Source: a virus (Duplodnaviria > Heunggongvirae > Uroviricota > Caudoviricetes). Taken from it: DNA of 12,422 nt. Of the stretch, positions 1 to 12,422 are shown one piece after another. The notes under the pieces were generated by a model that ran no database searches, was not told where the DNA came from, and was given only the letters and a program-made list of their open reading frames with translations. The first letter of the stretch is position 1, and each line of letters opens with the position of its first letter. Location: IMG/VR virus record IMGVR_UViG_2619619131_000008, positions 1 through 12,422 of that record; one strand, 5' to 3'. The translations under genes and the position numbers were made by a program.

Positions 1-312
1 AGGCTCCGGAAGACGGTTGTTGCGCACGTATTCGGTGAACGCACTATGGCGACGCTGGGGCGTCTTATGAGCCTGCTGTCACCCTTTGACGTGGTGATAT
101 GGATGACGGATGGCTGGCCGCTGTATGAATCCCGCCTGAAGGGAAAGCTGCACGTAATCAGCAAGCGATATACGCAGCGAATTGAGCGGCATAACCTGAA
201 TCTGAGGCAGCACCTGGCACGGCTGGGACGGAAGTCGCTGTCGTTCTCAAAATCGGTGGAGCTGCATGACAAAGTCATCGGGCATTATCTGAACATAAAA
301 CACTATCAATAA
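1..312 (+). CDS. insB: IS1 transposase InsB, C-terminal part (5'-truncated by window edge)
   Basis: Frame 1 is open from position 1 to TAA at 310-312. Translation [48 protein letters not shown]… matches recalled InsB. Confidence 0.85.
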
Positions 313-327
313 GTTGGAGTCATTACC
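1..327 (+). mobile_element. IS1 insertion sequence, 3' portion (5' part lies outside the window); right terminal inverted repeat ends at about 327
   Basis: Window starts inside a sequence I recognise as IS1 (…CTCCGGAAGACGGTTGTTGCGCACGTATTCGGTGAACGCACTATGGCGACG…). ORF translates to the InsB C-terminus (…HYLNIKHYQ). Characteristic IS1 end …CACTATCAATAAGTTGGAGTCATTACC at 301-327. Confidence 0.9.
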
Positions 328-392
328 TCCAAATCTGAATAATTAAGTTCAGCACTGTAAATAAAATTTAATCCTTAACTGGAGGTATATCT

Positions 393-605
393 ATGTCAAA
401 TACACAGAAAATTATTAACACTGAAAAATATAACGAGTGGGTGAAAAAATTCTCTGAACAGATTTTTAAAATTACTGGCGACGAGAATGTGGCAAAAAAT
501 GAATTAGAACCGTGGACACCTGAAGGAAACGCACCAAATTATTGCTGGTGGGAGGTTGATCCGGTTGATGCTGCAAATGAAGCCATGAGTTACCACAACG
601 ATTAA
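393..605 (+). CDS. hypothetical 70-aa protein (AT-rich moron gene)
   Basis: ATG at 393 preceded by GGAGG (381-385) at good spacing. Visibly AT-rich sequence immediately after the IS1 end. No recognisable family. Confidence 0.5.
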   Translation: MSNTQKIINTEKYNEWVKKFSEQIFKITGDENVAKNELEPWTPEGNAPNYCWWEVDPVDAANEAMSYHND

Positions 606-615
606 TGTCGGGAGG

Positions 616-631
616 CCGCCCGAAAGGGCGG
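616..631 (+). other. intergenic GNRA-tetraloop stem-loop (CCGCCC-GAAA-GGGCGG), not followed by a U-tract
   Basis: Perfect 6-bp GC-rich stem with GAAA loop between the stop at 605 and the ATG at 638. No downstream T-run, so it is not a canonical intrinsic terminator. Confidence 0.5.
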
Positions 632-637
632 TAAGAA

Positions 638-856
638 ATGACTACATTATTCAGAAAAGAATATCCGCAAAAAAGTAGAGCGACAGAATTTTTGTTTCTC
701 ATTCTGTTTATCGTATTGATGATACCGATATCCCCTCTAATTTTTGTCTGGGCAATCGGGAAAATAATTGAGCCAGTTACTGAATTGTATACCGACGTTG
801 TATGGGCGTCGTTCAACACACTGCACAATAAAATTAATCCGTATAAGGAAAACTGA
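638..856 (+). CDS. hypothetical small membrane protein (72 aa, one predicted TM helix: FLFLILFIVLMIPISPLIFVWAIG)
   Basis: ORF in the same AT-rich island with a long hydrophobic segment. Weak RBS. Stop TGA 854-856 is directly followed by the next start at 858. Confidence 0.45.
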   Translation: MTTLFRKEYPQKSRATEFLFLILFIVLMIPISPLIFVWAIGKIIEPVTELYTDVVWASFNTLHNKINPYKEN

Positions 857-857
857 T

Positions 858-1121
858 ATGGCAACTTTGACAAAAAAAGAACGGGCATGGTTGAACGAAT
901 TACAGGAAGTTCTTGATCGCTGTCCATCACCGAAAAAAATTGGCTTTTACACCATTGGCGATAAAAGCATTTACCTGTATGACCTACGTCGCATGGATGA
1001 AATCATGGAGGCTCTTGATAATCGTTCGTCGATGGATTGGTGTGTTGCTGTTCATGATATGAATGCAGGGTTTGATGAAAAGATTTTGTTCCCCTCATCA
1101 GTTGAAAGCACTGCGGGTTAA
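858..1121 (+). CDS. hypothetical phage protein (87 aa)
   Basis: ATG at 858 preceded by AAGGAAAA. The longer ORF-track form (768..1121) would overlap the upstream gene and was not used. No family recognised. Confidence 0.55.
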   Translation: MATLTKKERAWLNELQEVLDRCPSPKKIGFYTIGDKSIYLYDLRRMDEIMEALDNRSSMDWCVAVHDMNAGFDEKILFPSSVESTAG

Positions 1122-1131
1122 GGAGTAACAC

Positions 1132-1299
1132 ATGACCACTATTACCAAAGAACGTATTGAATTGTTCATTAAAAACCCGCTTGAAAACGGGCTTACCCGT
1201 GGTGAACAAATGGAACTGGCACGGATTGCGCTGGCATCGCTGGAAGCAGAGCCGGTTGTGTTCTGGTTTGAAAAATATCAAGAAGGGGCTACGGCATGA
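1132..1299 (+). CDS. hypothetical small protein (55 aa), paralogous to the next gene
   Basis: Absent from the ORF track (<60 aa). ATG at 1132 with AGGAG at 1121-1125. Translation [55 protein letters not shown]. Stop overlaps the next start (ATGA at 1296-1299). Confidence 0.5.
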
Positions 1300-1541
1300 C
1301 GACTTTTACCAGAGAGCAGTTAATAGCTCACGCAGAGGAGACTATTGAAGCACAGAGACTGTGCATACCGGGCACAATCGACCATGACATCATCCGCACA
1401 TATAAGATGGATATTGCTGTTCTGGAAATCGCACTGGTATCGCTGGCAGCAGAGCCAGCCGGTAAATTGCATGAATACAAACCAGTGGGATATCAGCGTC
1501 TGGTCGATGAGTTAACCATGCTGGTAAAGCAGTTAACCTAG
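1296..1541 (+). CDS. hypothetical small protein (81 aa), paralogous to the previous gene
   Basis: Starts MTTFTREQ… (compare MTTITKER…) and contains [10 protein letters not shown] (compare [10 protein letters not shown]). Translationally coupled to the upstream ORF. Confidence 0.55.
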
Positions 1542-1636
1542 CAACTGAGGAAAGCGAAGCCAGACTGCAAATTACCGGATAAGGCGATGAGTTATCTGGA
1601 GCGGAACGGACTGATAAGCGTGGAGGATATTTTACG

Positions 1637-1720
1637 ATGACCTGGCCTGAAGCATTAACAACGGTAGGAATTGCGATGGCGGTGGCGCTGGTGGTGTATT
1701 CGATTTGCCGCTGGGGATAA
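1637..1720 (+). CDS. possible 27-aa hydrophobic peptide (MTWPEALTTVGIAMAVALVVYSICRWG), coupled to a 17-aa upstream ORF (1587-1640)
   Basis: GGAGG at 1622-1626 precedes the ATG at 1637. ATGA overlap with the tiny upstream ORF. Single hydrophobic helix. Below ORF-track size; speculative. Confidence 0.25.
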   Translation: MTWPEALTTVGIAMAVALVVYSICRWG

Positions 1721-1889
1721 AAACGGTTTGCGGGAAAAGGAGAGTTAAGTAGAATTGCAGCGGGTGCTTGAGGCTATCTGTCTCAGGCATGAACACCAAA
1801 AGGCAGATAGAGAAAAGCCCCAGTTAACATTACGCGTCCGGCAAGACGCTTAACATTAATCTGAGGCCATATCTATGCTCTACACACGT

Positions 1890-1918
1890 AGGTTAGCCTC
1901 TTACGTGCCGAAAGGCAA
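1890..1918 (-). promoter_or_regulatory. candidate Sok-like antisense promoter (minus strand: TTGCCT - 17 bp - TAACCT) directing transcription across the upstream in-frame ATG of the hok ORF
   Basis: Hexamers read from the reverse complement. Position and orientation match the canonical hok/sok layout. Not verified. Confidence 0.3.
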
Positions 1919-1931
1919 GGAGAAGCAGGCT

Positions 1932-2087
1932 ATGAAGCAGCAAAAGGCGATGCTAATCGCCCTGATCGTCATCTGTTTAACCGTCATTGTGACGGCACTG
2001 GTAACGAGGAAAGACCTCTGCGAGGTACGAATCCGAACCGGCCAGACGGAGGTCGCTGTCTTCACAGCTTACGAACCTGAGGAGTAA
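1932..2087 (+). CDS. hokD: Hok/Gef family type I toxin (51 aa), HokD/RelF-like
   Basis: Translation MKQQKAMLIALIVICLTVIVTALVTRKDLCEVRIRTGQTEVAVFTAYEPEE matches the Hok family signature (TM helix, conserved Cys, C-terminal periplasmic tail). AAGGAG at 1916-1921. An in-frame upstream ATG at 1875 could give a 70-aa form. Confidence 0.85.
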   Translation: MKQQKAMLIALIVICLTVIVTALVTRKDLCEVRIRTGQTEVAVFTAYEPEE

Positions 2088-2155
2088 GAGACCTGGCGGG
2101 GGAGAAATCCCTCGCCACCTCTGATGTGTCAGGCATCCTCAACGCACCCGCACTT

Positions 2156-2182
2156 AACCCGCTTCGGCGGGTTTTGTTTTTT
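2156..2182 (+). terminator. rho-independent terminator downstream of hok (AACCCGC-TTCG-GCGGGTT followed by a T-run)
   Basis: GC stem-loop followed by TTTGTTTTTT, seen directly. Confidence 0.6.
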
Positions 2183-2254
2183 CCTGGCATTCTGGTTTAC
2201 AATTCGCACGTCAGCCTGAACACCTGACACCTGCTGCGCCAGCAGAGAAAACAG

Positions 2255-2527
2255 ATGGCGCACAAAACCAAATTTCACAATTCTGATACCGACCTTGCCA
2301 TCCGGCATGAGCGGCGTTCACACGCATTTAAAACCGACTGGTACCAACACCCACCATGTACTGAAGAACAGGCCGAATGGCTGATTCATTCTTACCGCAG
2401 GCGCGGGTTCGAGGTTAAGAAAGCTCTCAGCCTCGATTATCGTCACTGGATAATCTCCGTCAGGCTTCCTTACTCTGAACGCCCACCGCGTCCGTCCCGC
2501 ACATTCCAGCAACGCATCTGGAGGTAA
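2255..2527 (+). CDS. hypothetical protein (90 aa) in the position occupied by rem in the Qin prophage
   Basis: ORF between hokD and the ydfU-like gene. Weak RBS. Synteny only; the K-12 Rem sequence is not recalled well enough to confirm. Confidence 0.45.
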   Translation: MAHKTKFHNSDTDLAIRHERRSHAFKTDWYQHPPCTEEQAEWLIHSYRRRGFEVKKALSLDYRHWIISVRLPYSERPPRPSRTFQQRIWR

Positions 2528-2528
2528 C

Positions 2529-3578
2529 GTGCGGGTATTACTTCGACCTGTTCTGGTACCGGAACTCGGGCTGGTGATCGTTAAGCCGGGCCGTGAATCC
2601 ATGCCGGTATTCCACAATACCCGGGTACTGGTGGAGCCGGAACCGAAAAGCATGCGTAATCTGTCGTCCGGGGTCGTTCCTGCCGTTCGCCAGCCGCTGG
2701 CGGAGGATAAATCATTACTGCCATTTTTCAGCGACGAACGAGTGATTCGTGCTGCTGGTGGCGCTGGCGCATTGTCTGACTGGTTACTGCGCCATGTTAA
2801 ATCCTGCCAGTGGCCACACGGCGATTATCACCACAGTGAAACCGTCATTCACCGTTATGGTACCGGCGCAATGGTGTTGTGCTGGCACTGCGACAACCAG
2901 TTGCGTGACCAGACCTCCGAATCACTTGAGCAACTTGCTCACCAAAACCTGTCAGCATGGATGATTGACGTCATTCGTCACGCAATGAATGGCACACAGG
3001 AGCGTGAATTATCGCTGGCTGAATTATCCTGGTGGGCGGCCTGCAATCAGGTGGTGGATGCACTACCTGAGGCAGTAGCGCGTCGTTCGCTGGGATTACC
3101 AGCGGAAAAAATCCGCTCCGTATACCGTGAGAGTGACATCGTACCGGGAGAACAGACAGCCATCAGCATACTGAAGCAGCGCACAAAAAATATTGCGCTG
3201 CCACTTCACGTCCACCAGCAACAAAATCCACCACAGGAAAAGACGGTGGTCAGCATTGCCGTTGATCCGGAGTCTCCGGAATCCTTCATGAAACGACCTA
3301 AACGTCGCCGCTGGGTTAACGAGAAATACACGCGCTGGGTGAAGACACAGCCGTGTGCGTGTTGTGGTAAGCCAGCCGACGATCCCCATCACCTGATTGG
3401 TCATGGTCAGGGCGGAATGGGGACAAAATCTCACGATATTTTCACGCTACCGCTGTGTCGGGAGCATCACAACGAGCTTCATGCGGATCCGCTGGCGTTC
3501 GAAGAAAAGCATGGCTCTCAGGTTGATTTAATTTTTCGTTTTCTTGATCACGCCTTTGCAACCGGCGTGCTCGGGTAA
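2529..3578 (+). CDS. ydfU: DUF968/YdfU-family lambdoid prophage protein with C-terminal HNH-like zinc-binding motif (CACCGKPADDPHH … CREHHNELH)
   Basis: 349-aa ORF from GTG at 2529 (GGAGG at 2520-2524). Strong resemblance to recalled Qin YdfU (MRVLLRPVLVPELGL…). Synteny hokD-rem-ydfU-Q. Confidence 0.8.
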   Translation: MRVLLRPVLVPELGLVIVKPGRESMPVFHNTRVLVEPEPKSMRNLSSGVVPAVRQPLAEDKSLLPFFSDERVIRAAGGAGALSDWLLRHVKSCQWPHGDYHHSETVIHRYGTGAMVLCWHCDNQLRDQTSESLEQLAHQNLSAWMIDVIRHAMNGTQERELSLAELSWWAACNQVVDALPEAVARRSLGLPAEKIRSVYRESDIVPGEQTAISILKQRTKNIALPLHVHQQQNPPQEKTVVSIAVDPESPESFMKRPKRRRWVNEKYTRWVKTQPCACCGKPADDPHHLIGHGQGGMGTKSHDIFTLPLCREHHNELHADPLAFEEKHGSQVDLIFRFLDHAFATGVLG

Positions 3579-3590
3579 AAGAGGTTACTG

Positions 3591-3965
3591 ATGCGTATAG
3601 AGTTTGTTTTGCCTTACCCGCCGACGGTGAACACCTACTGGCGACGTCGTGGCAGCACATATTTTGTATCAAAAGCCGGTGAGCGTTATCGCCGGGCTGT
3701 GGCGCTTATTGTTCGCCAGCAGCGGCTGAAATTAAGCCTGTCCGGAAGGCTGGCGATAAAGATTATTGCCGCGCCACCGGATAAGCGCCGCCGTGACCTG
3801 GACAATATTCTGAAAGCGCCGCTGGATGCGCTGACGCATGCGGGGTTGCTAATGGACGATGAGCAGTTTGATGAAATCAATATCGTTCGTGCTCAGCCAG
3901 TATCTGGTGGACGTCTGGGGGTGAAGATTTACCCCATAATGCTTGCAGGGCAGGTCAAAAAATGA
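3591..3965 (+). CDS. rusA: RusA-family Holliday junction resolvase
   Basis: 124 aa. RusA-like motifs (YPPTVNTYW near the N-terminus, RRRDLDN acidic catalytic motif). AAGAGG RBS. Typical nin-region position just upstream of Q. Confidence 0.85.
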   Translation: MRIEFVLPYPPTVNTYWRRRGSTYFVSKAGERYRRAVALIVRQQRLKLSLSGRLAIKIIAAPPDKRRRDLDNILKAPLDALTHAGLLMDDEQFDEINIVRAQPVSGGRLGVKIYPIMLAGQVKK

Positions 3966-4783
3966 AACTGGAAGATTTACCGAAATACTACTCCCCAAAA
4001 TCCCCCGGCCTGACTGATGCATCGGCCTCAACGTCGAAAGATGCGCTGAGTATCACTGATGTGATGGCCGCGCAGGGCATGACACAGAATCGGGCTGAGA
4101 TGGGGTTTTCTGCGTTCCTTGGTAAAATGGGCATTAGTATGAATGACAGAGAGCGGGCAACAGAATTGCTGACAGAATATGCACTCAGTCGGTGTGATCG
4201 CGTGGCGGCGTTAAGAAAACTCCCGGCAGAAATAAAACCGGTAGTGATGCGCATTATGGCTTCGTACGCTTTTGAGGATTATGCCCGTAGCGCAGCGAGT
4301 AAAAAACAGTGCCCCTGCTGTCACGGAAAAAAATTTATTGAAAGCGAGGTTTTTACAAACAAGATCCAGTATCCGGATGGTAAGCCGCCGGTATGGGCAA
4401 AGTGTACGAAAGGTGTGTATCCGTCTTACTGGGAAGAATGGAAAAAAGTCAGGGAGGTGGTAAAAGTTGCCTGTCCGGAGTGTGGCGGAAAGGGTGAGGT
4501 TTCCACCGCCTGTAAGGATTGCCGTGGGCGTGGTGTCGCCATTCATCGTGAAGAGTCGGTAAAACGTGGTATGCCTGTTATCAGAGACTGCCAGCGTTGT
4601 GGTGGTCGTGGCTGTGAAAGACTACCATCAACGGAGGCATTTAATGCCATATGCAAAGTGACGAGTGCTATCACGCTTGATACGTGGAAAAAATCAGTGA
4701 AACGCTTTTACGATACGTTGGTGGTTCGGTTTGACATTGAAGAGGCATGGGCGGAGCGGCAGTTAAAGAGGGTAACGCGATAG
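3962..4783 (+). CDS. putative late-gene antiterminator (Q-like, QuuQ/YdfT-like) with four DnaJ-type CxxCxGxG zinc-finger repeats
   Basis: 273-aa ORF coupled to rusA (ATGA overlap). Sits immediately upstream of a lambda-like pR' promoter and tR' terminator. Contains CPCCHGKK, CPECGGKG, CKDCRGRG, CQRCGGRG. Assignment rests on synteny and recalled Qin organisation. Confidence 0.6.
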   Translation: MKLEDLPKYYSPKSPGLTDASASTSKDALSITDVMAAQGMTQNRAEMGFSAFLGKMGISMNDRERATELLTEYALSRCDRVAALRKLPAEIKPVVMRIMASYAFEDYARSAASKKQCPCCHGKKFIESEVFTNKIQYPDGKPPVWAKCTKGVYPSYWEEWKKVREVVKVACPECGGKGEVSTACKDCRGRGVAIHREESVKRGMPVIRDCQRCGGRGCERLPSTEAFNAICKVTSAITLDTWKKSVKRFYDTLVVRFDIEEAWAERQLKRVTR

Positions 4784-4788
4784 TGTTG

Positions 4789-4828
4789 TTGATTTTTCCC
4801 GAATCTGTGGTAAATTCGCTCTAACGAT
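4789..4828 (+). promoter_or_regulatory. pR'-like late promoter (-35 TTGATT, extended -10 TGgTAAATT) with downstream AACGAT pause-like element (putative Q engagement region)
   Basis: The -10 hexamer TAAATT and the downstream …AACGATGGG… closely resemble the lambda pR' region as recalled. Located 6 bp after the Q-like stop. Confidence 0.6.
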
Positions 4829-4865
4829 GGGCGTTTTATGCCTGACGTTAGAAGATTTTTTACAC

Positions 4866-4887
4866 CCCGCCGCCTGGCGGGTTTTTT
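4866..4887 (+). terminator. tR'-like intrinsic terminator (CCCGCC-GCCT-GGCGGG + TTTTTT)
   Basis: Perfect 6-bp GC stem followed by a T6 run about 45-65 nt downstream of the pR' start region; would yield a short 6S-like leader RNA. Confidence 0.7.
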
Positions 4888-5009
4888 ATGACTGAAATCG
4901 CGTCAGTACAGTAAACGCGCTGGTGGCGGTGAATACCTGTCTTTCAGCTTGCTGGCTTTTTCGACAAGAGTTATTGGTGTGTCACGTTAACCGGAAAAGG
5001 GAAAAAGAC

Positions 5010-5207
5010 ATGCTAAAACAGCAGGATATGACAGAAACCGCCAGAGTAGTGTTTAATGAATTAAGCGTTACCGAACCGGCGACAGTCGGGGAGATTGCAC
5101 AGAATACTTACCTTTCACGCGAACGCTGCCAGTTAATACTGACCCAGCTGGTTATGGCGGGTCTGGCAGACTATCAGTGCGGTTGTTACAGACGCCTTCA
5201 GTCCTGA
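5010..5207 (+). CDS. hypothetical 65-aa protein, possibly a small helix-turn-helix DNA-binding protein
   Basis: ATG at 5010 preceded by AAAAGGGAAAAAG. Segment TVGEIAQNTYLSRERCQLILTQLVMAGL resembles an HTH. Start chosen over the longer 4923 form. Confidence 0.45.
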   Translation: MLKQQDMTETARVVFNELSVTEPATVGEIAQNTYLSRERCQLILTQLVMAGLADYQCGCYRRLQS

Positions 5208-5220
5208 AGGCTTTTTATTT
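5193..5220 (+). terminator. rho-independent terminator (GCCTTCAG…CTGAAGGC + TTTTTATTT) overlapping the stop of the 65-aa gene
   Basis: Near-perfect 8-bp inverted repeat followed by a T-rich run. Confidence 0.5.
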
Positions 5221-5274
5221 GTGGTGAATGGGCGGCTGGTGGGGGGCGACACCTGTCAGTCCTTTGCTTATGTG

Positions 5275-5305
5275 TTGATGATAATTTACCTTTTGGGGCT
5301 ATAAT
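5275..5305 (+). promoter_or_regulatory. candidate sigma70 promoter for the AraC-family gene (-35 TTGATG, -10 TATAAT)
   Basis: Consensus TATAAT at 5300-5305. The -35 spacing is slightly long (about 19 bp), so uncertain. Confidence 0.35.
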
Positions 5306-5340
5306 TGAGCTAACCAATTGCTAATGAAAGTAAAATTATA

Positions 5341-6054
5341 ATGGCTGTTGTCTGTTCAGTTATCATGGTTTGCTCCCCAATTAATATTTTTCTTGAAAAG
5401 GATACGTTGTCACTTAAGCCAGGCTCAGTTGTTCTGGCCACCAAATGCATCAGGGAGCTTTTCCTTATGCATTATGGCAAAGTTAAAATTGTCGATATAA
5501 GCGAATCCGTCGTAAGTCAATATCTGGAAAGTCAGCATAAGCTGACGAGGACTCGTCTGACTGACATTCCGCTTTACCTGTTGCTGGAACCCAACAATCC
5601 TGCGTTGGCTGCGGCTTTAATTACCAGCCAGGGATTTTCCGGAGAGGCCACGGATATGTTTCTTATGATGGCCTGCCTGTCTCTGTTTGAAACAGATGAA
5701 CGGATGTCATTGTTTTTAAGTGGATGTTTATCCAGCATAAGTGCCAAAGTCAGGGCGATAATTCAGACAGATATATCAGCAAGCTGGACGCTTTGTGCGA
5801 TTGCTCTACAGTTGCATATGAGTGAGAGTTTGTTAAAGACAAAACTGAAAAATGAAGGGGGCATGTTCAGTCGCTTGTTGCTGGAAGAGCGGATGCGTGT
5901 TGCTGTAAATATGTTATGTTCCCGGCATGGATATGGACAGGCTATAGCAGAAAAATGCGGTTATTCAAGCAGGTCCTACTTTATTTCTGTATTTCACCGC
6001 TATTATGGCTTCCCGCCAGACAGATATGTATCCAGGCAAGGGCTTGATTATTGA
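5341..6054 (+). CDS. AraC/XylS-family transcriptional regulator (prophage-encoded, AppY/Psr/PatE-like class)
   Basis: 237 aa. C-terminal double-HTH signature of the AraC family (…AIAEKCGYSSRSYFISVFHRYYGFPPDRY…). N-terminus MAVVCSV… resembles prophage AppY-type regulators as recalled. Visibly AT-rich gene and upstream region. Alternative downstream starts are possible. Confidence 0.8.
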   Translation: MAVVCSVIMVCSPINIFLEKDTLSLKPGSVVLATKCIRELFLMHYGKVKIVDISESVVSQYLESQHKLTRTRLTDIPLYLLLEPNNPALAAALITSQGFSGEATDMFLMMACLSLFETDERMSLFLSGCLSSISAKVRAIIQTDISASWTLCAIALQLHMSESLLKTKLKNEGGMFSRLLLEERMRVAVNMLCSRHGYGQAIAEKCGYSSRSYFISVFHRYYGFPPDRYVSRQGLDY

Positions 6055-6082
6055 TTTTCATCTGATTATTATTTTTTGGCTC

Positions 6083-6158
6083 GGCCCTTTAGCTCAGTGG
6101 TGAGAGCGAGCGACTCATAATCGCCAGGTCGCTGGTTCAAATCCAGCAAGGGCCACCA
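6083..6158 (+). tRNA. ileZ: tRNA-Ile2 (anticodon CAU, lysidine-type; ileZ/ileX-like), with encoded CCA
   Basis: Cloverleaf readable by eye: GGCCCTT acceptor, D arm GCTCAGTGGTGAGAGC, anticodon loop CTCATAA, T arm GGTTCAAATCC, 3' CCA. Very similar to recalled E. coli ileX. Anticodon alone would also fit Met. Confidence 0.85.
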
Positions 6159-6165
6159 TCACATA

Positions 6166-6239
6166 CCGCCATTAGCTCATCAGGAAAGAGCGCCAGCCTT
6201 CGAAGCTGGTTGCGCGGAGTTCGGATCCCCGAAGGCGGT
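6166..6239 (+). tRNA. argN: tRNA-Arg-like (anticodon read as UCG; argN-like), with non-canonical stem pairs
   Basis: Acceptor CCGCCAT/AAGGCGG (one A-A mismatch), D arm GCTC…GAGC, anticodon stem-loop CCAGC-CTTCGAA-GCTGG, T arm CGGAG-TTCGGAT-CCCCG (one A-C mismatch). 3' end is TCA rather than CCA. Confidence 0.55.
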
Positions 6240-6255
6240 TCATTATCTGTATCCT

Positions 6256-6332
6256 GCGTTGTTAGCTCAGCCGGACAGAGCAATTGCCTTCTAAGCAATC
6301 GGTCACTGGTTCGAATCCAGTACAACGCGCCA
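6256..6332 (+). tRNA. argO: tRNA-Arg (anticodon UCU; argO/argU-like), with encoded CCA
   Basis: Acceptor GCGTTGT/ACAACGC, D arm GCTCAGCCGGACAGAGC, anticodon loop CTTCTAA, T arm CTGGTTCGAATCCAG, discriminator G + CCA. Confidence 0.85.
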
Positions 6333-6346
6333 GACTTATTTTTCCC

Positions 6347-6370
6347 GGCTCGCTTTTGCGGGCCTTTTTT
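6347..6370 (+). terminator. rho-independent terminator after the tRNA cluster (GGCTCGC-TTTT-GCGGGCC + TTTTTT)
   Basis: 7-bp stem with one G-U pair followed by a T6 run. Confidence 0.55.
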
Positions 6371-6502
6371 GTATCCGCGCCACGCCCGGCGCATATCAAC
6401 CACAGAGCCTTTCGGGGGTGAGCTTACGGAGTGGTCAGTGTGACTTTCTCTGTGGGCAGATCGCTCCCGGGCGTTGGCTCACCCACCCAAAGGAACGTCA
6501 CG

Positions 6503-6934
6503 ATGTTTGGTATTTTTGGTAAAAAAGCCCGCCGAGCGGCAGTGGAAATTAAAAAGTTTGAGAAACGTGATCTGGCACAGGCGGTTATTAATGCTGCCTA
6601 TCTGGTGGCCTATGCAGATGGTGAATGTGAGGCTTCAGAGAAAGCGAAGATCGAGCAGGTCTTGCGTAACCAGCCTGCGTTGTCCGCGTTTACGTCAGAA
6701 ATTAATGCGATTAGCGCAACCATTATCGGTCAGCTGGATACGAACTTTAAAATTGGTCGTCGAGCGGCGTTACGTGAGATCGAGGATGTGAAACACGATA
6801 CGCGTGAAGCGGAAGACGTGCTGGATGTGGCGGTGGCCATTGCCGAAGCAGACGGCGAAATAGAGCCGGAAGAGCGCAAGGTGCTGGAAGAGATTGCCGG
6901 TGTTCTGGGCCTTCGTCTGGAGAATCATCTGTGA
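6503..6934 (+). CDS. TerB-like domain protein (tellurite-resistance TerB / DjlA-N-like fold), 143 aa
   Basis: ATG at 6503 with AAGGAA 7 nt upstream. Two TerB-type acidic motifs (AYADGECEASEKAKIEQVL and AEADGEIEPEERKVLEEIAGVLGL). The earlier GTG at 6431 lacks an RBS. Confidence 0.65.
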   Translation: MFGIFGKKARRAAVEIKKFEKRDLAQAVINAAYLVAYADGECEASEKAKIEQVLRNQPALSAFTSEINAISATIIGQLDTNFKIGRRAALREIEDVKHDTREAEDVLDVAVAIAEADGEIEPEERKVLEEIAGVLGLRLENHL

Positions 6935-6942
6935 CGGTAAAA

Positions 6943-7104
6943 ATGCGTCTGGCTGTGGTTGCGCTCCTGCTGTTTCTGGTAGTGATGGTGGTGATGGTGG
7001 ACTTCAGCAGCCGGATAATGTCAGTGCTGGCTGACGGTGTGCTGGTGGCGGGTGTGGTGGTTGTTGCTTTCCCGTTGCTGAAAAAGAAAGCATCAGGCGA
7101 TTAG
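6943..7104 (+). CDS. possible small hydrophobic membrane peptide (53 aa: MRLAVVALLLFLVVMVVMVDFSSRIMSVLADGVLVAGVVVVAFPLLKKKASGD)
   Basis: Absent from the ORF track (<60 aa). Starts 9 nt after the TerB-like stop. Two hydrophobic segments and a KKK tail. Weak RBS; contains a 9-bp tandem repeat GTGATGGTG x2. Confidence 0.35.
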   Translation: MRLAVVALLLFLVVMVVMVDFSSRIMSVLADGVLVAGVVVVAFPLLKKKASGD

Positions 7105-7344
7105 CAGGGTATCAGTTACCCGTTGAAATTTTTAAATACCTCACAATTCAGGCGGTTGACTGTTGTCTGGTTTGCGGGGAGTTTGTTAAAAGAAACTGGC
7201 ATGGTGAATCCCCCTGTGCGGAGGGGCAATCAGCAACTGGTGTTTTGTCACCGACCCTTATCCTTTCTGTGCGGGTTCAGGTGCTGATACTGAACTCACC
7301 GGGAGGCACCCGGCACCATGCAAAATTGTCTACACTACCACTGT

Positions 7345-7373
7345 AAAAAGCCCCTCTCCGGAGGGGCTTTTCT
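7345..7373 (+). terminator. strong intrinsic terminator (AGCCCCTC-TCCG-GAGGGGCT + TTTCT), A-run upstream makes it potentially bidirectional
   Basis: Perfect 8-bp GC-rich stem with tetraloop, flanked by AAAAA and TTTT. Confidence 0.65.
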
Positions 7374-7378
7374 ATGGG

Positions 7379-7407
7379 CAAAAAAAAGCCCGCAGTGAGT
7401 GGCGGGC
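7379..7407 (-). terminator. intrinsic terminator oriented for the minus strand (GCCCGC…GCGGGC preceded on + by A8, i.e. followed by U8 on minus-strand RNA)
   Basis: 6-bp GC stem with 8-nt loop. The poly-A on the + strand corresponds to poly-U on a leftward transcript. Confidence 0.45.
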
Positions 7408-7471
7408 GGGGCGCATGAATATACATCAGGTATTTTTATTATCGTGTTCTGATTTTTACCATCTGTGATAA

Positions 7472-7502
7472 GGCTGCGCAACTGCGCGGCCTTTTTCGTT
7501 TT
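7472..7502 (+). terminator. intrinsic terminator (GGCTGCGC-AACT-GCGCGGCC + TTTTTCGTTTT)
   Basis: 8-bp stem with one G-U pair followed by a T-rich run, about 90 bp upstream of the nanS-p-like start. Confidence 0.55.
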
Positions 7503-7590
7503 GCGGGCTGCGGTTCTCCTCTTTTGATTCTCCGTGTAGCCGGACCGTGGCCCGCAACTGTTGAGGAAAATCCCGGAAAGGGGAGGAATA

Positions 7591-9534
7591 ATGGCATTTA
7601 AACACTATGACGTGGTCAGGGCGGCGTCGCCGTCAGACCTTGCGGAGCGACTGACACAAAAACTGAAGGAAGGCTGGCAGCCGTTTGGCAGTCCTGTGGC
7701 TATCACGCCTTATACACTGATGCAGGCCATTGCCGCAGAGGGTGATGTGACCACGCCTGTGGTTGTGCCCGACACAGGGGCTGGTGGCTCTCCGGGAGTG
7801 GCTACCACTGAACCGGAGTATTACTACGTTATTCCCCTGGCCGGGCAGTCGAACGGTATGGCCTATGGTGAGGGGCTTCCTCTGCCGGAGACCTATGATC
7901 GCCCTGACTCCCGTATTAAGCAGCTGGCCCGTCGCAGCACTGTGACGCCGGGTGGTGATACCTGTGCATACAATGACGTTATTCCGGCAGACCACTGTCT
8001 GCATGATGTTCAGGACATGAGCGCACTTAACCATCCTCATGCAGACCTGAGTAAGGGCCAGTACGGGACTGTCGGTCAGGGGCTGCATATTGCCAAAAAA
8101 CTTCTGCCTTATATCCCGCAGAATGCCGGGATTCTTCTGGTGCCCTGTTGCCGTGGCGGGTCTGGTTTAACCGTGGGTAATGACGGCACGTTCAGCGAAA
8201 CGTCTGGCGCATCGGCAAATTCAGCCCGCTGGGGAGTGGGTAAACCGCTGTATCAGGATTTTCTCTTCCGTACAAAAGCGGCGCTGTCGAAGAACCCGAA
8301 AAACAGGCTTCTGGCCGTGGTATGGATGCAGGGGGAAAATGATCTTGCGGACGGCAGTCAGCAGCACAGCGGCCTGTTTACCACTATGGTGCAGCAGTTC
8401 AGGGCTGATATGGCTGCATATTCTGCACAGTGTGTTGGCGGAAGTGCTGGCTCGGTGCCGTGGATTTGTGGTGACACCACGTATTACTGGAAGAATCTTA
8501 ACGCCGATAAATATGAGGCGGTATATGGCGGTTACAAGGGCAGGGAAGCACAGAATATTTTCTTTGTACCGTTCCTGACGGATGAGAATGGACAGAGCAC
8601 GCCAACGAATGCTCCGGCGGAAGACCCGGATATTGTGGCTGTCGGGTATTACGGTGCAGCATCCCGAACCCAGGGCAGTTTTGTTTCGACACAGCGTGAC
8701 AGCCATTTCAGCTCATGGGCACGCAGGGGCGTCATTTCAGACCGTCTGGCCTCAGCTATTATGCTCCATGCAGGGCGCACGGCTGAATTGATGCGCGGGC
8801 AGACCGTGACACCACCGGATGAGAAGCCGTCACCTGATACACCATCAAAACCGTCCACGCCACCCGCAGACACCACGACGATGAGTACGCTATTTGCTTA
8901 CCGGGCATCTGAGTCTGAAGGACGGTTGACACCACAGGGTTGGGCTGCTGGAGGTGGCAAGGCTCAAATCGTGGATGATGCCGGAGCCAGCGGGGGTAAG
9001 GCAATGAAACTGACCAAGGAAACAGGAAGAGCCCCCTGGTACCTTGAGCATGATGCTGGTAATGGTGCGGACCTGCTGGGTAAAGGTGGTCTTGTCAGTT
9101 GTCGTTTTAAACTCGATGGCGCGCTTACGGCTAATCAGTACGCACTGGCGCTGTACTGGCCGGTTTCTTCATTGCCTCAGGGTGTCACACTGGAAGGTAA
9201 TGCCGGTAACAATCTGCTGGCGTCGTTTTACGTACAGAGCGATGCCACAGACCTCAACGTGATGTACCACAAGGGTAACGCTGACCAGAACACGAAGCTG
9301 GGGTCATTCGGCGCATTTAATAACGAATGGCATACGCTGGGCTTCCGTTTTGCCGGTAATAACAGTATTCAGGTGACGCCGGTGATTGATGGTCAGGATG
9401 GTGCACCGTTCATGCTGTCGCAGTCTCCGGTAGGTTCTTTTGCGGCAGACAAATTACGTGTAACGGATATCACAAAAGCGGCGACGTATACGGTGCTGAT
9501 TGAAAGTATAACAGTGGAAGTGAATAACCCGTAA
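7591..9534 (+). CDS. nanS: NanS-p-like prophage 9-O-acetyl sialic acid esterase (N-terminal DUF1737, SGNH/SASA esterase core with GQSN motif, C-terminal beta-rich domain)
   Basis: 647 aa from ATG 7591 (AAGGGGAGGA RBS). N-terminus MAFKHYDVVRAASPSDLAERL… is DUF1737-like. IPLAGQSNGMAYGEG carries the SGNH catalytic Ser block. Pro/Ser/Thr-rich linker (TPPDEKPSPDTPSKPSTPP). Same position as yjhS/nanS-p downstream of the toxin site in Stx phages. Confidence 0.8.
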   Translation: MAFKHYDVVRAASPSDLAERLTQKLKEGWQPFGSPVAITPYTLMQAIAAEGDVTTPVVVPDTGAGGSPGVATTEPEYYYVIPLAGQSNGMAYGEGLPLPETYDRPDSRIKQLARRSTVTPGGDTCAYNDVIPADHCLHDVQDMSALNHPHADLSKGQYGTVGQGLHIAKKLLPYIPQNAGILLVPCCRGGSGLTVGNDGTFSETSGASANSARWGVGKPLYQDFLFRTKAALSKNPKNRLLAVVWMQGENDLADGSQQHSGLFTTMVQQFRADMAAYSAQCVGGSAGSVPWICGDTTYYWKNLNADKYEAVYGGYKGREAQNIFFVPFLTDENGQSTPTNAPAEDPDIVAVGYYGAASRTQGSFVSTQRDSHFSSWARRGVISDRLASAIMLHAGRTAELMRGQTVTPPDEKPSPDTPSKPSTPPADTTTMSTLFAYRASESEGRLTPQGWAAGGGKAQIVDDAGASGGKAMKLTKETGRAPWYLEHDAGNGADLLGKGGLVSCRFKLDGALTANQYALALYWPVSSLPQGVTLEGNAGNNLLASFYVQSDATDLNVMYHKGNADQNTKLGSFGAFNNEWHTLGFRFAGNNSIQVTPVIDGQDGAPFMLSQSPVGSFAADKLRVTDITKAATYTVLIESITVEVNNP

Positions 9535-9682
9535 GCAGGAAAAAAAGACCGCCGTGGCAGGGAAAACAAGGAGCCAGAACCGGCGGCAGAAGTCGCTACA
9601 TCCTTAGCAAAAATATGCTGAGCAAAAAATGCAGGAGTTTTTTACTGGCAGGCATTGACCATGTCAATAATGGAGATGAATA

Positions 9683-9865
9683 ATGACATTTTTACAGCTG
9701 ATTATGTTGTATTTCTGTACAGCAGTTTGTGTGCTGTATCTTCTTTCTGGTGGGTACAGAGTCGTGAGAGATTTCTGGCGCAGGCAGATTGACAAAAGGG
9801 CCGCTGAGAAAATCAGTGCCAGTCAGTCAGCCGGAACAAAACCCGAAGAGCCTCTCATTCCGTAG
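9683..9865 (+). CDS. hypothetical small membrane protein (60 aa)
   Basis: ATG with GGAG upstream. N-terminal hydrophobic helix (LQLIMLYFCTAVCVLYLLSGG). Confidence 0.45.
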   Translation: MTFLQLIMLYFCTAVCVLYLLSGGYRVVRDFWRRQIDKRAAEKISASQSAGTKPEEPLIP

Positions 9866-9902
9866 CAACTTTCTTAACAACACCTTTCAACGAGAAAATA
9901 CC

Positions 9903-10172
9903 ATGTCAGAAATAAAATCGCTGGTCACTGCTGAAGCAGTGAAGGAAGTCCTGCGCTCTGAAGAAGTCAGAAGCGCACTGAAACAGCAACTTCGGCAGAA
10001 CCTTGAGGCGCGTCTTGATGCAGAAGTGGATGCCATTCTGGATGAACTGCTGGGCGCACCGACTGTTCCGGAGCCGGAAGGCATTGCGGATGACAGTGCT
10101 GTTTCAGATGGCGTCGGGTCTCAGCCTGATGGTAGCAGTGAGCCTCAGCCTGACGGCGAAATGATGATGTAA
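9903..10172 (+). CDS. hypothetical acidic protein (89 aa) with C-terminal low-complexity SQPDG/EPQPDG repeat
   Basis: ATG at 9903 chosen over the upstream in-frame ATG (9789), which would overlap the previous gene. Helical N-terminal part and acidic tail. Confidence 0.5.
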   Translation: MSEIKSLVTAEAVKEVLRSEEVRSALKQQLRQNLEARLDAEVDAILDELLGAPTVPEPEGIADDSAVSDGVGSQPDGSSEPQPDGEMMM

Positions 10173-10247
10173 CCATGCGCAGGGGCTGTCGGTGTGAGCT
10201 GATGCCCCTCTTGTTGTTGTGAGCTTCCGGATTGCGGGAGACGGGGT

Positions 10248-10463
10248 ATGTACCAGATGGAAAAAATCACAACAGGTGTGTCATACACCACGTCAGCGGT
10301 GGGGACGGGCTACTGGTTCCTGCAGCTGCTGGACAGGGTTTCCCCGTCTCAGTGGGCGGCAATAGGCGTACTGGGAAGTCTGCTGTTTGGGCTGCTGACA
10401 TATCTGACTAACCTGTATTTCAAAATCAGAGAGGACCGTCGTAAGGCGGCGCGGGGAGAGTAA
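10248..10463 (+). CDS. S: class II holin, phage 21 S-type pinholin (71 aa) with possible dual-start motif (Met1/Met4)
   Basis: [71 protein letters not shown] is near-identical in the C-terminal two thirds to recalled S21. Two TMDs and a charged C-tail. Confidence 0.85.
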
Positions 10464-10467
10464 AGCG

Positions 10468-10812
10468 ATGAAGAAAAAATACGAACTGGTTGTTAAAGGG
10501 ATAAATAATTACCCGAATAAGATTACTGTTACTGTGGCACTGGAAATTGGTGGGTATCCGTCACTGTTGTTGCCAGATGTGGCGATTAGTCTTGACCGTA
10601 CTGAAGATGCCACGCTGGAGTTTTACGAAGCTGAGGCGAAAAAGCAGGCGAAGCAGTTTTTCATGGATGTTGCTGCCGGGTTATGTGAAGGGGATGGTCC
10701 GTTGCCGGAAAAGCGCCCCGTAATTTTAGAGGCGCAGGATGTGTTGATAACCTACAGAGGAAAACTACCGGGAATAATTACTGGTTCTCTGAAGACTCCA
10801 CCGCTGGCCTGA
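10468..10812 (+). CDS. hypothetical 114-aa protein inserted between pinholin and endolysin genes
   Basis: ATG at 10468 with GGAGAG RBS, 4 nt after the holin stop. No TM segment or family recognised. Confidence 0.55.
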   Translation: MKKKYELVVKGINNYPNKITVTVALEIGGYPSLLLPDVAISLDRTEDATLEFYEAEAKKQAKQFFMDVAAGLCEGDGPLPEKRPVILEAQDVLITYRGKLPGIITGSLKTPPLA

Positions 10813-10862
10813 AGACTTAACATATCCAGGGATTTGAAATCGATAAACCCTGATAAATATCC

Positions 10863-11396
10863 ATGAACACCAAAATCAAATACGGCCTGTCGGCTGCCGT
10901 TCTGGCGCTGATTGCCGCAGGTGCGCCTGCGCCTGAAATCCTCGACCAGTTTCTGGATGAAAAGGAAGGTAACCACACCACGGCATACCGTGATGGCGCG
11001 GGTATCTGGACCATCTGCCGCGGTGCCATCCTGGTGGATAGTAAACCTGTCGTCCCGGGCATGAAGTTGTCGAAGGAAAAATGCGACCAGGTCAACGCCA
11101 TTGAGCGTGATAAGGCGCTGGCATGGGTGGAGCGCAATATTAAAGTGCCGCTGACCGAACCCCAGAAAGCGGGTATCGCGTCATTTTGTCCCTATAACAT
11201 TGGCCCCGGTAAGTGTTTCCCGTCGACGTTTTACAGACGGATTAATGCTGGTGACCGCAGGGGAGCATGCGAAGCGATTCGCTGGTGGATTAAGGACGGT
11301 GGCAGAGACTGCCGTATCCGCTCAAATAATTGCTACGGTCAGGTATCCCGGCGAGACCAGGAAAGTGCGCTGGCGTGCTGGGACATCGACAGATAA
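10863..11396 (+). CDS. R: SAR endolysin (T4-lysozyme-like muramidase, R21 type) with N-terminal signal-anchor-release domain
   Basis: 177 aa. N-terminal weakly hydrophobic Gly/Ala-rich segment (GLSAAVLALIAAGAPAP). Catalytic E-x8-D-x5-T pattern (E…NHTTAYRD…GIWT). Expected partner of a pinholin. Confidence 0.8.
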   Translation: MNTKIKYGLSAAVLALIAAGAPAPEILDQFLDEKEGNHTTAYRDGAGIWTICRGAILVDSKPVVPGMKLSKEKCDQVNAIERDKALAWVERNIKVPLTEPQKAGIASFCPYNIGPGKCFPSTFYRRINAGDRRGACEAIRWWIKDGGRDCRIRSNNCYGQVSRRDQESALACWDIDR

Positions 11397-11486
11397 GCAG
11401 AATATTTTGCTGAAAAATAAGGCATGAGCACGCGGACGGATAACACGAAATCCTGCGAACTGGCGAAACGTAAGTGAATAAAAGTA

Positions 11487-11526
11487 AAAACCCCGTTTGT
11501 TGGCACCAAGCGGGGTTTTGTGTTTC
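11487..11526 (+). terminator. intrinsic terminator downstream of the endolysin gene (CCCCGTTTG…CAAGCGGGG + TTTTGTGTTT), A-run upstream
   Basis: 9-bp stem with one G-U pair and 7-nt loop followed by a T-rich run. Confidence 0.5.
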
Positions 11527-11552
11527 TGACCTTGAGTAAGGCAAGGGAGAAC

Positions 11553-11735
11553 ATGGCGAAGTATAAACGAATTCTGTTGAGGTTGACCATGAAAAACGGC
11601 CTTGAACTGAAAGCGCCTGTAACTGATGACATCAGCAGAGCACTGGCTTTTGCCATTAAGTGGGTGGCGGTCGGTGTTGCTGTGTCCCCGATGCTGTATG
11701 GGCTGGCAAAACTGGTCATTGCGTTGAAATCGTGA
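11553..11735 (+). CDS. hypothetical small protein (60 aa) with C-terminal hydrophobic helix
   Basis: ATG at 11553 with AAGGGAGA upstream (short spacing). Hydrophobic segment [22 protein letters not shown]. Function unknown. Confidence 0.35.
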
Positions 11736-11749
11736 AGGGAGGATTAAGC

Positions 11750-11881
11750 ATGTCAGACAAACTCATAACGCTGGCGAAGATCCTCTGTGTAATTGTCGGC
11801 ATTTCATTTTCACTAATGCTGGTTGCTCTTTTTCTTTCCATGGCCTGGATGATGTTGTCTTCGTCGGGGCTGCTGGGGTGA
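11750..11881 (+). CDS. hypothetical small membrane peptide (43 aa)
   Basis: Strong RBS GAAGGGAGG before ATG 11750. One TM helix ([26 protein letters not shown]). Stop overlaps the Rz start. Confidence 0.35.
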
Positions 11882-12351
11882 ACATAAACCGAATGCTTTC
11901 CGCGTTTACCGTTATTCTGCTGGTGGTCTGTGGTGCGCTGTGGCTGGCAACAGACCATTACCGTGATAACGCCATCACCTACAAAGCGCAGCGCGATAAA
12001 AAAGCCAGAGAGCTGGAGCTGGCAAACGCAACCATTACTGACATGCAGCAGCGCCAGCGTGATGTTGCTGCGCTTGATGCCAGATACTCAAGGGAATTAG
12101 CCGATGCGAGAGCTGAAAATGAAACTCTGCGTGCTGATGTTGCCGCTGGTCGTAAGCGCCTGCGGATCAACGCCACCTGCTCCGGTACCGTGCGTGAAGC
12201 CACCGGCACCTCCGGAATGGATAATGCAACCGGCCCCCGACTGGCAGACACCGCTGAACGGGATTATTTCACCCTCAGAGAGCGGTTGATGACAATGCAG
12301 AAGCAACTGGAAGGGGCGCAGGAATATATCCGCACTCAGTGTATTAACTAG
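11878..12351 (+). CDS. Rz: Rz i-spanin (inner-membrane spanin subunit)
   Basis: Strong similarity to recalled lambda Rz (…[15 protein letters not shown]…[17 protein letters not shown]…TMQKQLEG…). N-terminal TM helix. Start may be GTG 11878 or ATG 11893. Confidence 0.85.
12104..12289 (+). CDS. Rz1: Rz1 o-spanin lipoprotein, embedded in the +1 frame inside Rz
   Basis: [61 protein letters not shown]: lipobox VVSAC, Pro-rich, very similar to recalled lambda Rz1. Confidence 0.85.
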
Positions 12352-12374
12352 TATTTTTGTTATCCGGAGAATGC

Positions 12375-12422
12375 ATGAAGAAATTACTGGTAACCGTAAA
12401 GCCTTTTCAGGGAACAATTCCG
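12375..12422 (+). CDS. start of an ORF running off the window (MKKLLVTVKPFQGTIP…), unidentified
   Basis: GGAGA RBS before ATG 12375. Only 16 codons visible. Confidence 0.2.
   Translation, partial: MKKLLVTVKPFQGTIP

Follow-up and report, generated by a model that had tools for sequence, protein, structure and literature searches.

Sequence and folding evidence for a complete hok/mok/sok type I toxin-antitoxin module of the prophage hokD/hokW type

Introduction

The current model of hok regulation (PMC9841398) rests on alternative folds of the hok mRNA. A metastable 5' hairpin blocks translation while transcription is running, and the full-length mRNA is locked by pairing of the tac and fbi elements, with the Shine-Dalgarno (SD) sequence of mok held by ucb. 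Trimming of the 3' end leads to pairing of tac with ucb and of the mok SD with dcb, a form that permits both translation and binding of the antisense RNA Sok. Among prophage-borne systems, hokW-sokW of Sp5 has been studied by Takada et al. 2021 (PMC8621323), who reported that HokW is toxic, that sokW RNA transcribed from its own promoter neutralises it, and that the locus brings lysis forward and, after mitomycin C, doubles the release of phage. HokD has been used as a toxic control in another study (bioRxiv 10.1101/2025.08.07.668861).

Here we describe a hok locus in a 12,422-nt stretch of viral DNA (IMG/VR record IMGVR_UViG_2619619131_000008, positions 1 to 12,422), referred to below as the window. 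An original prediction made from the letters of this DNA described an intact hok gene with an in-frame upstream start, a minus-strand promoter, a repeat-flanked hairpin in the leader and no relBE, and proposed a functional rather than a decayed toxin-antitoxin system. Judging from the sequence, it is very likely that positions 1728-2183 hold all the parts of a type I toxin-antitoxin module, hok/mok/sok of the prophage hokD/hokW type. Such a module is known already, both in kind and in sequence.

Results

Genomic context and distribution

The window is part of a mosaic lambda-like prophage, and the locus lies in its nin region. Small phage ORFs on the plus strand are followed by hok, a 90-aa ORF (orf90) and the genes for a DUF968 protein, RusA and the Q antiterminator, and at an identical locus elsewhere all genes from cro to Q share the strand of hok. 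A 27-aa ORF precedes the module, within the region that matches phage 933W. Landmarks around the locus are as follows.

46-312: IS1 transposase fragment
2529-3578: DUF968 gene
3591-3965: RusA gene
3962-4783: Q antiterminator gene

Further downstream, the window also carries three tRNA genes and the sRNA STnc100. The IS1 fragment and an amber codon in a neighbouring gene are signs of prophage decay. We found no relBE in the window, the upstream neighbours of hok being small phage ORFs; the original prediction was right on this point, and K-12 hokD, by comparison, directly follows relE. The relBE-hokD (relBEF) arrangement of Qin, in which a leaderless hok follows relE, is absent from the window.

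The 701 nt that span the locus occur at 100% identity in eight E. coli chromosomes, in which the gene is annotated as hokD. Strains that carry the identical locus include E. coli 300709 and ETEC6. The leader (1740-1931), counted per genome at a coverage of at least 80%, was found in 4210 of 5426 complete E. coli genomes, with a median of 2 and a maximum of 8 copies. The window as a whole, at a threshold of at least 80%, was found in no complete E. coli genome. In RefSeq, the identical and related E. coli loci carry no annotation over the leader, neither for the leader itself nor for mok or Sok. The RefSeq label "hokD" therefore hides a full regulatory apparatus in these copies, one that is absent from the namesake K-12 hokD.

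The hok and mok reading frames

Two overlapping reading frames were read directly from the sequence, in agreement with the prediction of an intact hok ORF with an in-frame upstream ATG at 1875.

1932-2087, plus strand: hok toxin ORF of 51 aa, with its SD AGGAGA at 1918-1923; assigned by Pfam and by identity to K-12 HokD
1875-2087, plus strand: mok reading frame of 70 codons, in the same frame as hok and with a common stop codon at 2085-2087

The hok ORF matches Pfam PF01848 (HOK_GEF) with 82.9 bits against a cut-off of 22, and its peptide is 100% identical to K-12 HokD. The mok frame has its own SD, GAGG, 8 nt upstream of the ATG at 1875 and at the position usual for the family. In most of the 35 related sequences compared below, including that of an R1-type plasmid, the mok ATG lies 57 nt 5' of the hok ATG and in frame; several Kluyvera and Escherichia loci have it 58 nt 5' of hok and out of frame. 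Among the sequences compared, an in-frame mok start is the family norm and no peculiarity of the window.

The hok mRNA and its folding elements

The Rfam family RF01794 matches the plus strand at 1762-1937 with 117.1 bits (gathering score 59), covering the full model (1-157). The match has plus-strand orientation and a length of 176 nt, and hence describes the leader of the hok mRNA, not the short Sok RNA that gives the family its name. The following elements of the mRNA were identified.

1728-1755, plus strand: putative hok mRNA promoter, read from the sequence (TTGCGG at 1728-1733, 16-nt spacer, TAGAAT at 1750-1755, +1 at about G1762)
1762-2181, plus strand: predicted full-length hok mRNA of about 420 nt, from RF01794 position 1 to the intrinsic terminator
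1762-1773, plus strand: tac (translational activator element), GGGUGCUUGAGG, from folds of the full-length and 5' RNA
1774-1810, plus strand: apical hairpin of the tac stem, CUAUCUGUCU / AGGCAGAUAG, a 10-bp helix in both closed and open folds
1815-1823, plus strand: ucb, an anti-Shine-Dalgarno element, AAGCCCCAG, paired with the mok SD region 1861-1867 in the closed form and with tac in the open form
1863-1900, plus strand: Sok-target hairpin of the open form, mok SD GAGGC (1863-1867) with dcb GCCUC (1896-1900)
2094-2117, plus strand: GC-rich 3' hairpin of 10 bp with a GAAA loop, by alignment the counterpart of R1 GGCGGGC...GCCCGCC
2137-2149, plus strand: fbi (fold-back inhibitory element), CCUCAA-C-GCACCC, 12 bp with tac
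2156-2183, plus strand: intrinsic terminator of the hok mRNA, AACCCGC-TTCG-GCGGGTT (2156-2173) and a T run, from a terminator scan

The -10-like box of the putative promoter lies 6-7 nt 5' of the conserved GGGTGCTTGAGG 5' end in the aligned relatives. A simple promoter scan missed this promoter because its -35 is weak. At the other end, the intrinsic terminator sits 3' of fbi and is common to the window and K-12 hokD.

The predicted mRNA (1762-2181) folds with a minimum free energy (MFE) of -173.1 kcal/mol, corresponding to z = -7.7 relative to shuffled sequences. In this full-length MFE structure, 1762-1773 pairs with 2137-2149 to form the 12-bp tac-fbi helix, GCC and CAG (1817-1823) pair with CUG and GGC (1861-1867) and thereby sequester the mok SD, and the regions of the hok SD and AUG are paired too. 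Stepwise folding of the 5' end gave a metastable hairpin at 30 nt (1764-1774 with 1780-1790, -16.9 kcal/mol) and the tac/ucb stem at 62 nt, and the MFE structure of the first 140 nt is the open one, with GAGGC 1863-1867 paired to GCCUC 1896-1900. In these folds, the tac element changes partner with the state of the RNA, from 1781-1790 in the nascent transcript to ucb (1815-1821) in 5' RNAs of 62-140 nt and fbi (2137-2149) in the full-length molecule. RNAs truncated at the 3' end, at 2119-2137, gave no open form: their MFE structure stayed closed, with the mok SD on ucb and the metastable hairpin formed, and thermodynamic prediction consequently fails to reproduce the activation step in the whole RNA.

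The original prediction had proposed RNA folding as a check and had named a leader lacking the conserved hok mRNA folding elements as evidence against itself. We found tac, fbi, ucb, dcb and the metastable hairpin, and the tac-fbi, ucb-mok SD and mok SD-dcb pairings were all recovered by folding. The inverted repeat CTATCTG...CAGATAG that had been noticed in the leader was located at 1774-1780 and 1804-1810 and is the apical hairpin of the tac stem, which is 92.9% paired over the 35 relatives and has 3 pairs altered on both sides. A repeat search recovered the repeats that had been noticed and added the pairs GCGGGTGC (1760-1767) / GCACCCGC (2144-2151) and GAGGCTA (1770-1776) / TAGCCTC (1894-1900). 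The 2094-2117 hairpin is 85.6% paired across the relatives; by analogy with PMC9841398, it is likely to be the 3' end protector of the processed mRNA.

Comparative alignment and covariation

Scanning one genome per species yielded 53 Hok loci from Escherichia, Shigella, Kluyvera, Citrobacter, Pseudocitrobacter, Photorhabdus, Pantoea and Erwinia. The alignment comprised 35 distinct tac-to-fbi RNAs, including those of the window, 933W and an R1-type plasmid. The presence, position, conservation and covariation of the module elements are direct observations on these sequences. On the alignment, the full-length structure of the window was 85.9% paired, as against 39-47% with partners slid by 1-3 columns, a structure here scored on an alignment that contains the very sequence from which it was derived and for which the first 6 tac-fbi pairs had served as selection criterion. 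Pairs altered on both sides numbered 34, compared with 14-23 for slid partners, over the same 35 sequences.

Covariation was seen in tac/fbi at columns 4/428 (UA in 23, CG in 12) and 12/419 (GC in 20, AU in 5), and in ucb/SD at columns 77/121 (AU in 23, GC in 11). Compensatory variants of tac/fbi among the relatives include GGGUGC/GCACCC changed to GGGCGC/GCGCCC and GAGG/CCUC changed to GAGA/UCUC. The helices of the open form, tac/ucb and mok SD/dcb, are fully paired and invariant in the 35 sequences (100% for the five SD/dcb pairs), and covariation is therefore uninformative about them. Variation among the eight closest sequences is concentrated at 1862-1891 (target loop and 5' tail of Sok), 1792-1801 (tac-stem loop) and 2102-2121 (3' hairpin), and is close to nil in tac, fbi, the two promoters and most of the ORF.

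A YUNR (U-turn) motif in the Sok-target loop was reportedly described as a feature of the family by Franch et al. in 1999. We found no YUNR in the window at 1875-1889, at and just after the mok AUG. It is present in 20 of the 35 relatives, 933W and the R1 type among them, and is thus not universal in the hok family. The review PMC4147584 makes no mention of the motif.

Predicted Sok antisense RNA and the repeat-flanked hairpin

The antisense side of the module comprises three features.

1890-1918, minus strand: putative Sok promoter, TTGCCT at 1918-1913, 17-nt spacer, TAACCT at 1895-1890
1813-1883, minus strand: predicted Sok RNA of about 71 nt, with coordinates carried over from the 933W sokW annotation
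1817-1867, both strands: the "repeat-flanked hairpin", on the minus strand the Sok stem-loop and terminator, on the mRNA strand the hairpin that closes ucb on the mok SD

Taken alone, the antisense promoter is no more than would be expected by chance. Its -10 has 3 of 6 matches to the consensus, and a simple promoter and terminator scan flagged neither the Sok promoter nor the Sok terminator. The sole promoter-like match of that scan, TTAACA-N18-TATGCT on the plus strand at 1850-1879, was itself at chance level (1 found, 0.7 expected). The predicted hexamers are nevertheless there as described, and the candidate promoter occupies the same aligned position, with a spacing of 17-18 nt, in all 35 distinct hok loci, the R1-type plasmid included. 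Most loci have TTGCCT or TTGACC with TAACCT, TAATCT or TATCCT, and the hexamers at the -10 position differ in hokC-type and a few other loci; the R1 promoter reads TTGCGC-N17-TATCCT. The promoter of the window equals that of 933W/Sp5 sokW in both hexamers and in the spacer, and in Sp5 mutations of the sokW promoter, drawn around the -10 element, abolish the antitoxin effect (PMC8621323).

The predicted Sok RNA would start 7 nt downstream of the -10 with a 15-nt single-stranded 5' tail complementary to the mok start codon, continue into a long hairpin and end in UUUU; its folding energy is -28.6 kcal/mol (z = -5.4). In the folding models, its body and terminator stem are the repeat-flanked hairpin, which is no extra element of the leader. 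In its 12.4 kb, the window has just two copies of the 9-nt sequence TTAACATTA, one at 1824-1832 and one at 1850-1858, and these flank GCGTC at 1834-1838 and GACGC at 1845-1849. Repeats and palindrome were thus found as predicted, although the coordinates first given for the repeats were one base too far to the right.

The fold of 1817-1867 reaches -26.5 kcal/mol on the Sok strand and -16.8 kcal/mol on the mRNA strand. In all 35 relatives the Sok strand of the hairpin is the more stable, by 6-10 kcal/mol with one exception (L027, 4.5 kcal/mol). On that strand, UUAAUGUUA pairs perfectly with UAAUGUUAA by way of one U·G and one G·U wobble, which become C·A mismatches on the mRNA strand. Comparing the two strands gives a simple test: the wobble pairs stabilise the middle hairpin on the Sok strand alone, which identifies it as the body of Sok. 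Since the arms of the stem pair by wobbles, the direct repeat TTAACATTA is best seen as a by-product of an A/U-rich stem and not as a duplication.

The GCGTC/GACGC tip and its flanking arms make the hairpin about 20 nt longer than in hokC-type, Photorhabdus and R1-type loci. This extension is found in 14 of the 35 sequences, namely the HokD/HokW clade, Kluyvera and an unclassified Enterobacteriaceae bacterium, with Escherichia and Shigella included, and it shows one compensatory change from GC to AU (columns 91/106). One might read the 9-nt repeats as the target-site duplication of a small foreign insertion with no regulatory role in hok/sok, given that they are exact, lie 26 nt apart and have no further copy in the window, that the segment of about 17-20 nt between them is missing from hokC-type, Photorhabdus and R1-type leaders, and that it appears in the Rfam alignment as an insertion against the consensus of the family. 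This can hardly be right. The repeat copies pair perfectly on the Sok strand through wobbles and lengthen the hairpin to its full stability, the segment falls right on the tip of a hairpin found in all relatives, it has been kept in 14 sequences with a compensatory exchange, and 17 nt is too short for any mobile element. We therefore rejected the target-site duplication and regard the repeats as the paired arms of the Sok stem.

Discussion

The proposal that the locus is an intact hok/mok/sok system rather than a decayed one was borne out at the sequence level, at which every required element that we looked for is present, and our findings support a structurally complete module of the hokW-sokW type as opposed to a decayed hokD. 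The transcription, processing, toxicity in context and biological role of the window allele are inferred from its relatives, and the mechanism outlined here is drawn by homology with R1 hok/sok and Sp5 hokW-sokW. A weak promoter would give rise to a hok mRNA of about 420 nt starting near 1762. In the nascent RNA, the 5' tac would be kept in the metastable hairpin with 1781-1790. The finished RNA would be inert, locked by tac-fbi (2137-2149), with the mok SD on ucb and the hok start region paired. Slow trimming of the 3' end to the 2094-2117 hairpin would take off fbi; tac could then shift to ucb, and the mok SD would enter the target hairpin with dcb. The open mRNA would be either translated, with hok coupled to mok, or bound by Sok, an RNA of about 71 nt running from 1883 to about 1813 that would reach over the mok start codon with its single-stranded 5' tail; the duplex would be degraded. 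If Sok were lost, the 51-aa Hok would be produced and would damage the inner membrane.

A complete module may nonetheless be silent, a conserved passenger from which Hok is never translated at effective levels and which kills no cells when it is lost or when transcription is blocked. The target loop of the window without YUNR, the MFE structure of the truncated RNA that remains closed and the partly decayed state of the prophage all speak for this view, and some chromosomal hok loci tested earlier showed no post-segregational killing, as cited in bioRxiv 10.1101/2025.08.07.668861. We consider a silent locus very unlikely, in that the regulatory elements are all intact and visibly constrained, as seen in covariation and invariant synonymous sites, that the leader has been kept in more than four thousand of the E. 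coli genomes counted (4210/5426), and that the 92%-identical hokW-sokW is active and required for normal lysis timing and phage yield (PMC8621323). It is a more serious possibility, a little short of an even chance, that the module works by the mechanism above in a role other than prophage maintenance, either as a helper of lysis and release coupled to induction or in anti-phage defence. In Sp5, treatment with mitomycin C leads, dependent on RecA, to the disappearance of sokW RNA and to the appearance of HokW about 1 h before the endolysin, and deletion of the locus halves phage release (PMC8621323); in the window, hok is co-directional with the genes of the early-right operon and lies upstream of Q. 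On the other hand, the sequence contains nothing that separates these roles, the 933W/Sp5 module is located elsewhere in the phage genome, so that a position in the early operon is not required, and the prophage of the window may no longer be inducible.

Returning to the complete module, we can sketch a joint reading of its position, hairpin and loop, which we put forward as speculative and unlikely. Prophage induction might send read-through sense transcripts over hok, which lies in the direction of the early-right operon and upstream of Q. Such transcripts would be without the tac 5' end and could form no tac-fbi lock, and they would meet the Sok promoter head-on and lower Sok, making the module a switch coupled to induction. 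In addition, Sok lifetime could be adjusted by the GC-tipped hairpin extension that is specific to the clade, and the variable target loop could prevent cross-talk among the several copies per genome. If true, the switch would offer a way to account for the unexplained loss of sokW RNA that depends on RecA in Sp5. The importance of the present findings is mostly limited to annotation, and the question of what prophage hok/sok modules do is not made newly testable here.

Comparison with known hok/sok systems

The alignments to K-12 hokD and to R1 hok/sok that the original prediction had suggested gave different results: K-12 is homologous from 1918 only, and the architecture of R1 matches. The parB locus of plasmid R1 has the same tac, ucb, mok SD and dcb, a mok start 57 nt upstream and in frame, the 3' hairpin and fbi, as well as the same Sok promoter position and 17-nt spacing, and it falls in the same Rfam and Pfam families. 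Its Hok is 42% identical to that of the window, its tac-stem loop is about 16 nt longer, and the R1-type Sok hairpin measures 34 nt and -16.4 kcal/mol, compared with 51 nt and -26.5 kcal/mol in the window. R1 hok/sok serves plasmid maintenance, whereas the window copy is in a prophage.

The hokC/mokC/sokC (gef) type likewise shares tac, fbi, ucb and dcb, with mok in frame in most loci (L020-L023), and its Hok is about 80-82% identical to the window peptide. Its Sok hairpin is short and without the GC tip, its Sok hexamers differ (-35 TTGACC, ACTCTA at the -10 position), and it occupies a fixed chromosomal site, in contrast to the prophage module described here.

K-12 hokD (relF) in Qin encodes the identical Hok peptide and sits in the same slot, followed by rem, an unannotated orf90 homologue, ydfU/DUF968 and Q. 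Its nucleotide identity to the window, 98.1%, is limited to 1918-2181, which takes in the SD, the toxin ORF and, 3' of it, the hairpin, fbi and the terminator. What the window has 5' of the hok SD, from the promoter, tac and ucb to the mok start, the Sok promoter and Sok itself, is replaced in K-12 by relB-relE, and K-12 hokD thus keeps fbi without its tac partner. Since the K-12 homology starts only at 1918, the window carries the complete form.

The hokW/mokW/sokW module of the Stx2 phage 933W, which is identical in the Stx2 phage Sp5 (VT2-Sakai), is 92.4% identical to the window at the nucleotide level over 1637-2159, a span that includes the 27-aa upstream ORF. The two have the same Sok promoter hexamers and spacer, the same extended Sok hairpin and the same tac and fbi sequences, and mok is in frame 57 nt 5' of hok in 933W as well. 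They differ at 7 positions between 1868 and 1887, in the target loop and the 5' tail of Sok, where YUNR has been lost in the window, and in the C-terminus of Hok, which reads FTAYEPEE in the window and FVDYESEK in HokW. A canonical terminator follows fbi in the window and not in 933W, and the module lies in the nin region in the window but at the right end of the 933W genome.

A small ORF shared with the hok/sok module

We identified a small hydrophobic ORF that travels with the hok/mok/sok type I toxin-antitoxin locus of this prophage. The features on the left side of the locus are:

46-312 (+), C-terminal fragment of an IS1 transposase, matching positions 44-131 of the 131-position Pfam profile DDE_Tnp_IS1
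1296-1640 (+), gene directly upstream of the module, with an amber codon at 1539-1541 recognized by comparison with E. coli strain 300709
1637-1720 (+), hydrophobic ORF of 27 aa, MTWPEALTTVGIAMAVALVVYSICRWG

Homology with the Stx2 phages 933W and Sp5 starts at 1637, which is the exact first base of the 27-aa ORF, and the ATG of this ORF overlaps the stop codon of the upstream gene (ATGA). The ORF and hok/sok move together as a single 523-bp module (1637-2159). No annotation covers the ORF at 1637-1720, and no match to it was found in Pfam or NCBIfam. It is also present on L024, a 431-bp contig assigned to Xanthomonas pisi. This contig and L019 (Acinetobacter idrijaensis, 275 bp) are tiny, come from non-enterobacterial assemblies and carry an E. 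coli-type hok with 96-100% identity, which looks like contamination.

In the gene directly upstream, codon 1539-1541 is TAG, compared with TGG (Trp82) in strain 300709, and the 114-aa protein is thereby shortened to 81 aa. Together with the IS1 transposase fragment located at the left end of the window, this amber codon suggests that the prophage is decaying.

Leader, Sok target and coding region of hok

The Rfam model RF01794, named "sok antitoxin", matches the sense strand at 1762-1937 (+). Its 157-position structure represents the hok mRNA leader in the open form and not the antisense Sok RNA of ~70 nt. Among the eight closest relatives, differences are concentrated at 1862-1891, comprising the Sok-target loop and the Sok 5' tail; the sequence on either side is almost invariant. 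Since up to 8 copies of the leader are found per genome, this variation could limit cross-talk between co-resident copies.

Sequence and alignment also revealed a possible mRNA editing site within hok:

2070-2073 (+), Tyr47 codon TAC followed by G, within TTACGAA

The heptamer is unchanged in all 35 hok relatives, including its synonymous positions. TAC followed by G is the context of A-to-I editing by TadA, and a Tyr-to-Cys change through such editing has been reported for mRNAs of the hok family (bioRxiv 10.1101/2025.08.07.668861).

Downstream genes and comparison with K-12

The following features lie on the 3' side of hok:

2129-2308 (-), hypothetical protein WP_001112736.1, 59 aa, annotated by RefSeq in identical loci
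2255-2527, ORF of 90 aa with a homologue in K-12 Qin
6083-6332 and 7170-7379 (+), three tRNA genes (Met-CAT, Arg-TCG, Arg-TCT) and the sRNA STnc100 (145.6 bits)

The frame of WP_001112736.1 covers the hok 3' UTR, fbi and the terminator on the opposite strand, and this 59-aa protein is probably a spurious call. The tRNA genes and STnc100 are located downstream of Q, as is usual for lambda-like and Stx-type prophages. In K-12 Qin, the homologue of the 90-aa ORF (80% amino-acid identity; L003, 1310-1585, -) is unannotated and sits between rem and ydfU.

The relBE-hok operon appears to be an architecture conserved across genera rather than an accident of K-12, because in Kluyvera sp. CHPC 1.2972 (L029, about 1300-1650) a hok gene adjoins the relE 3' end at the same point as in K-12 relBE-hokD, even though its Hok is only 70% identical.
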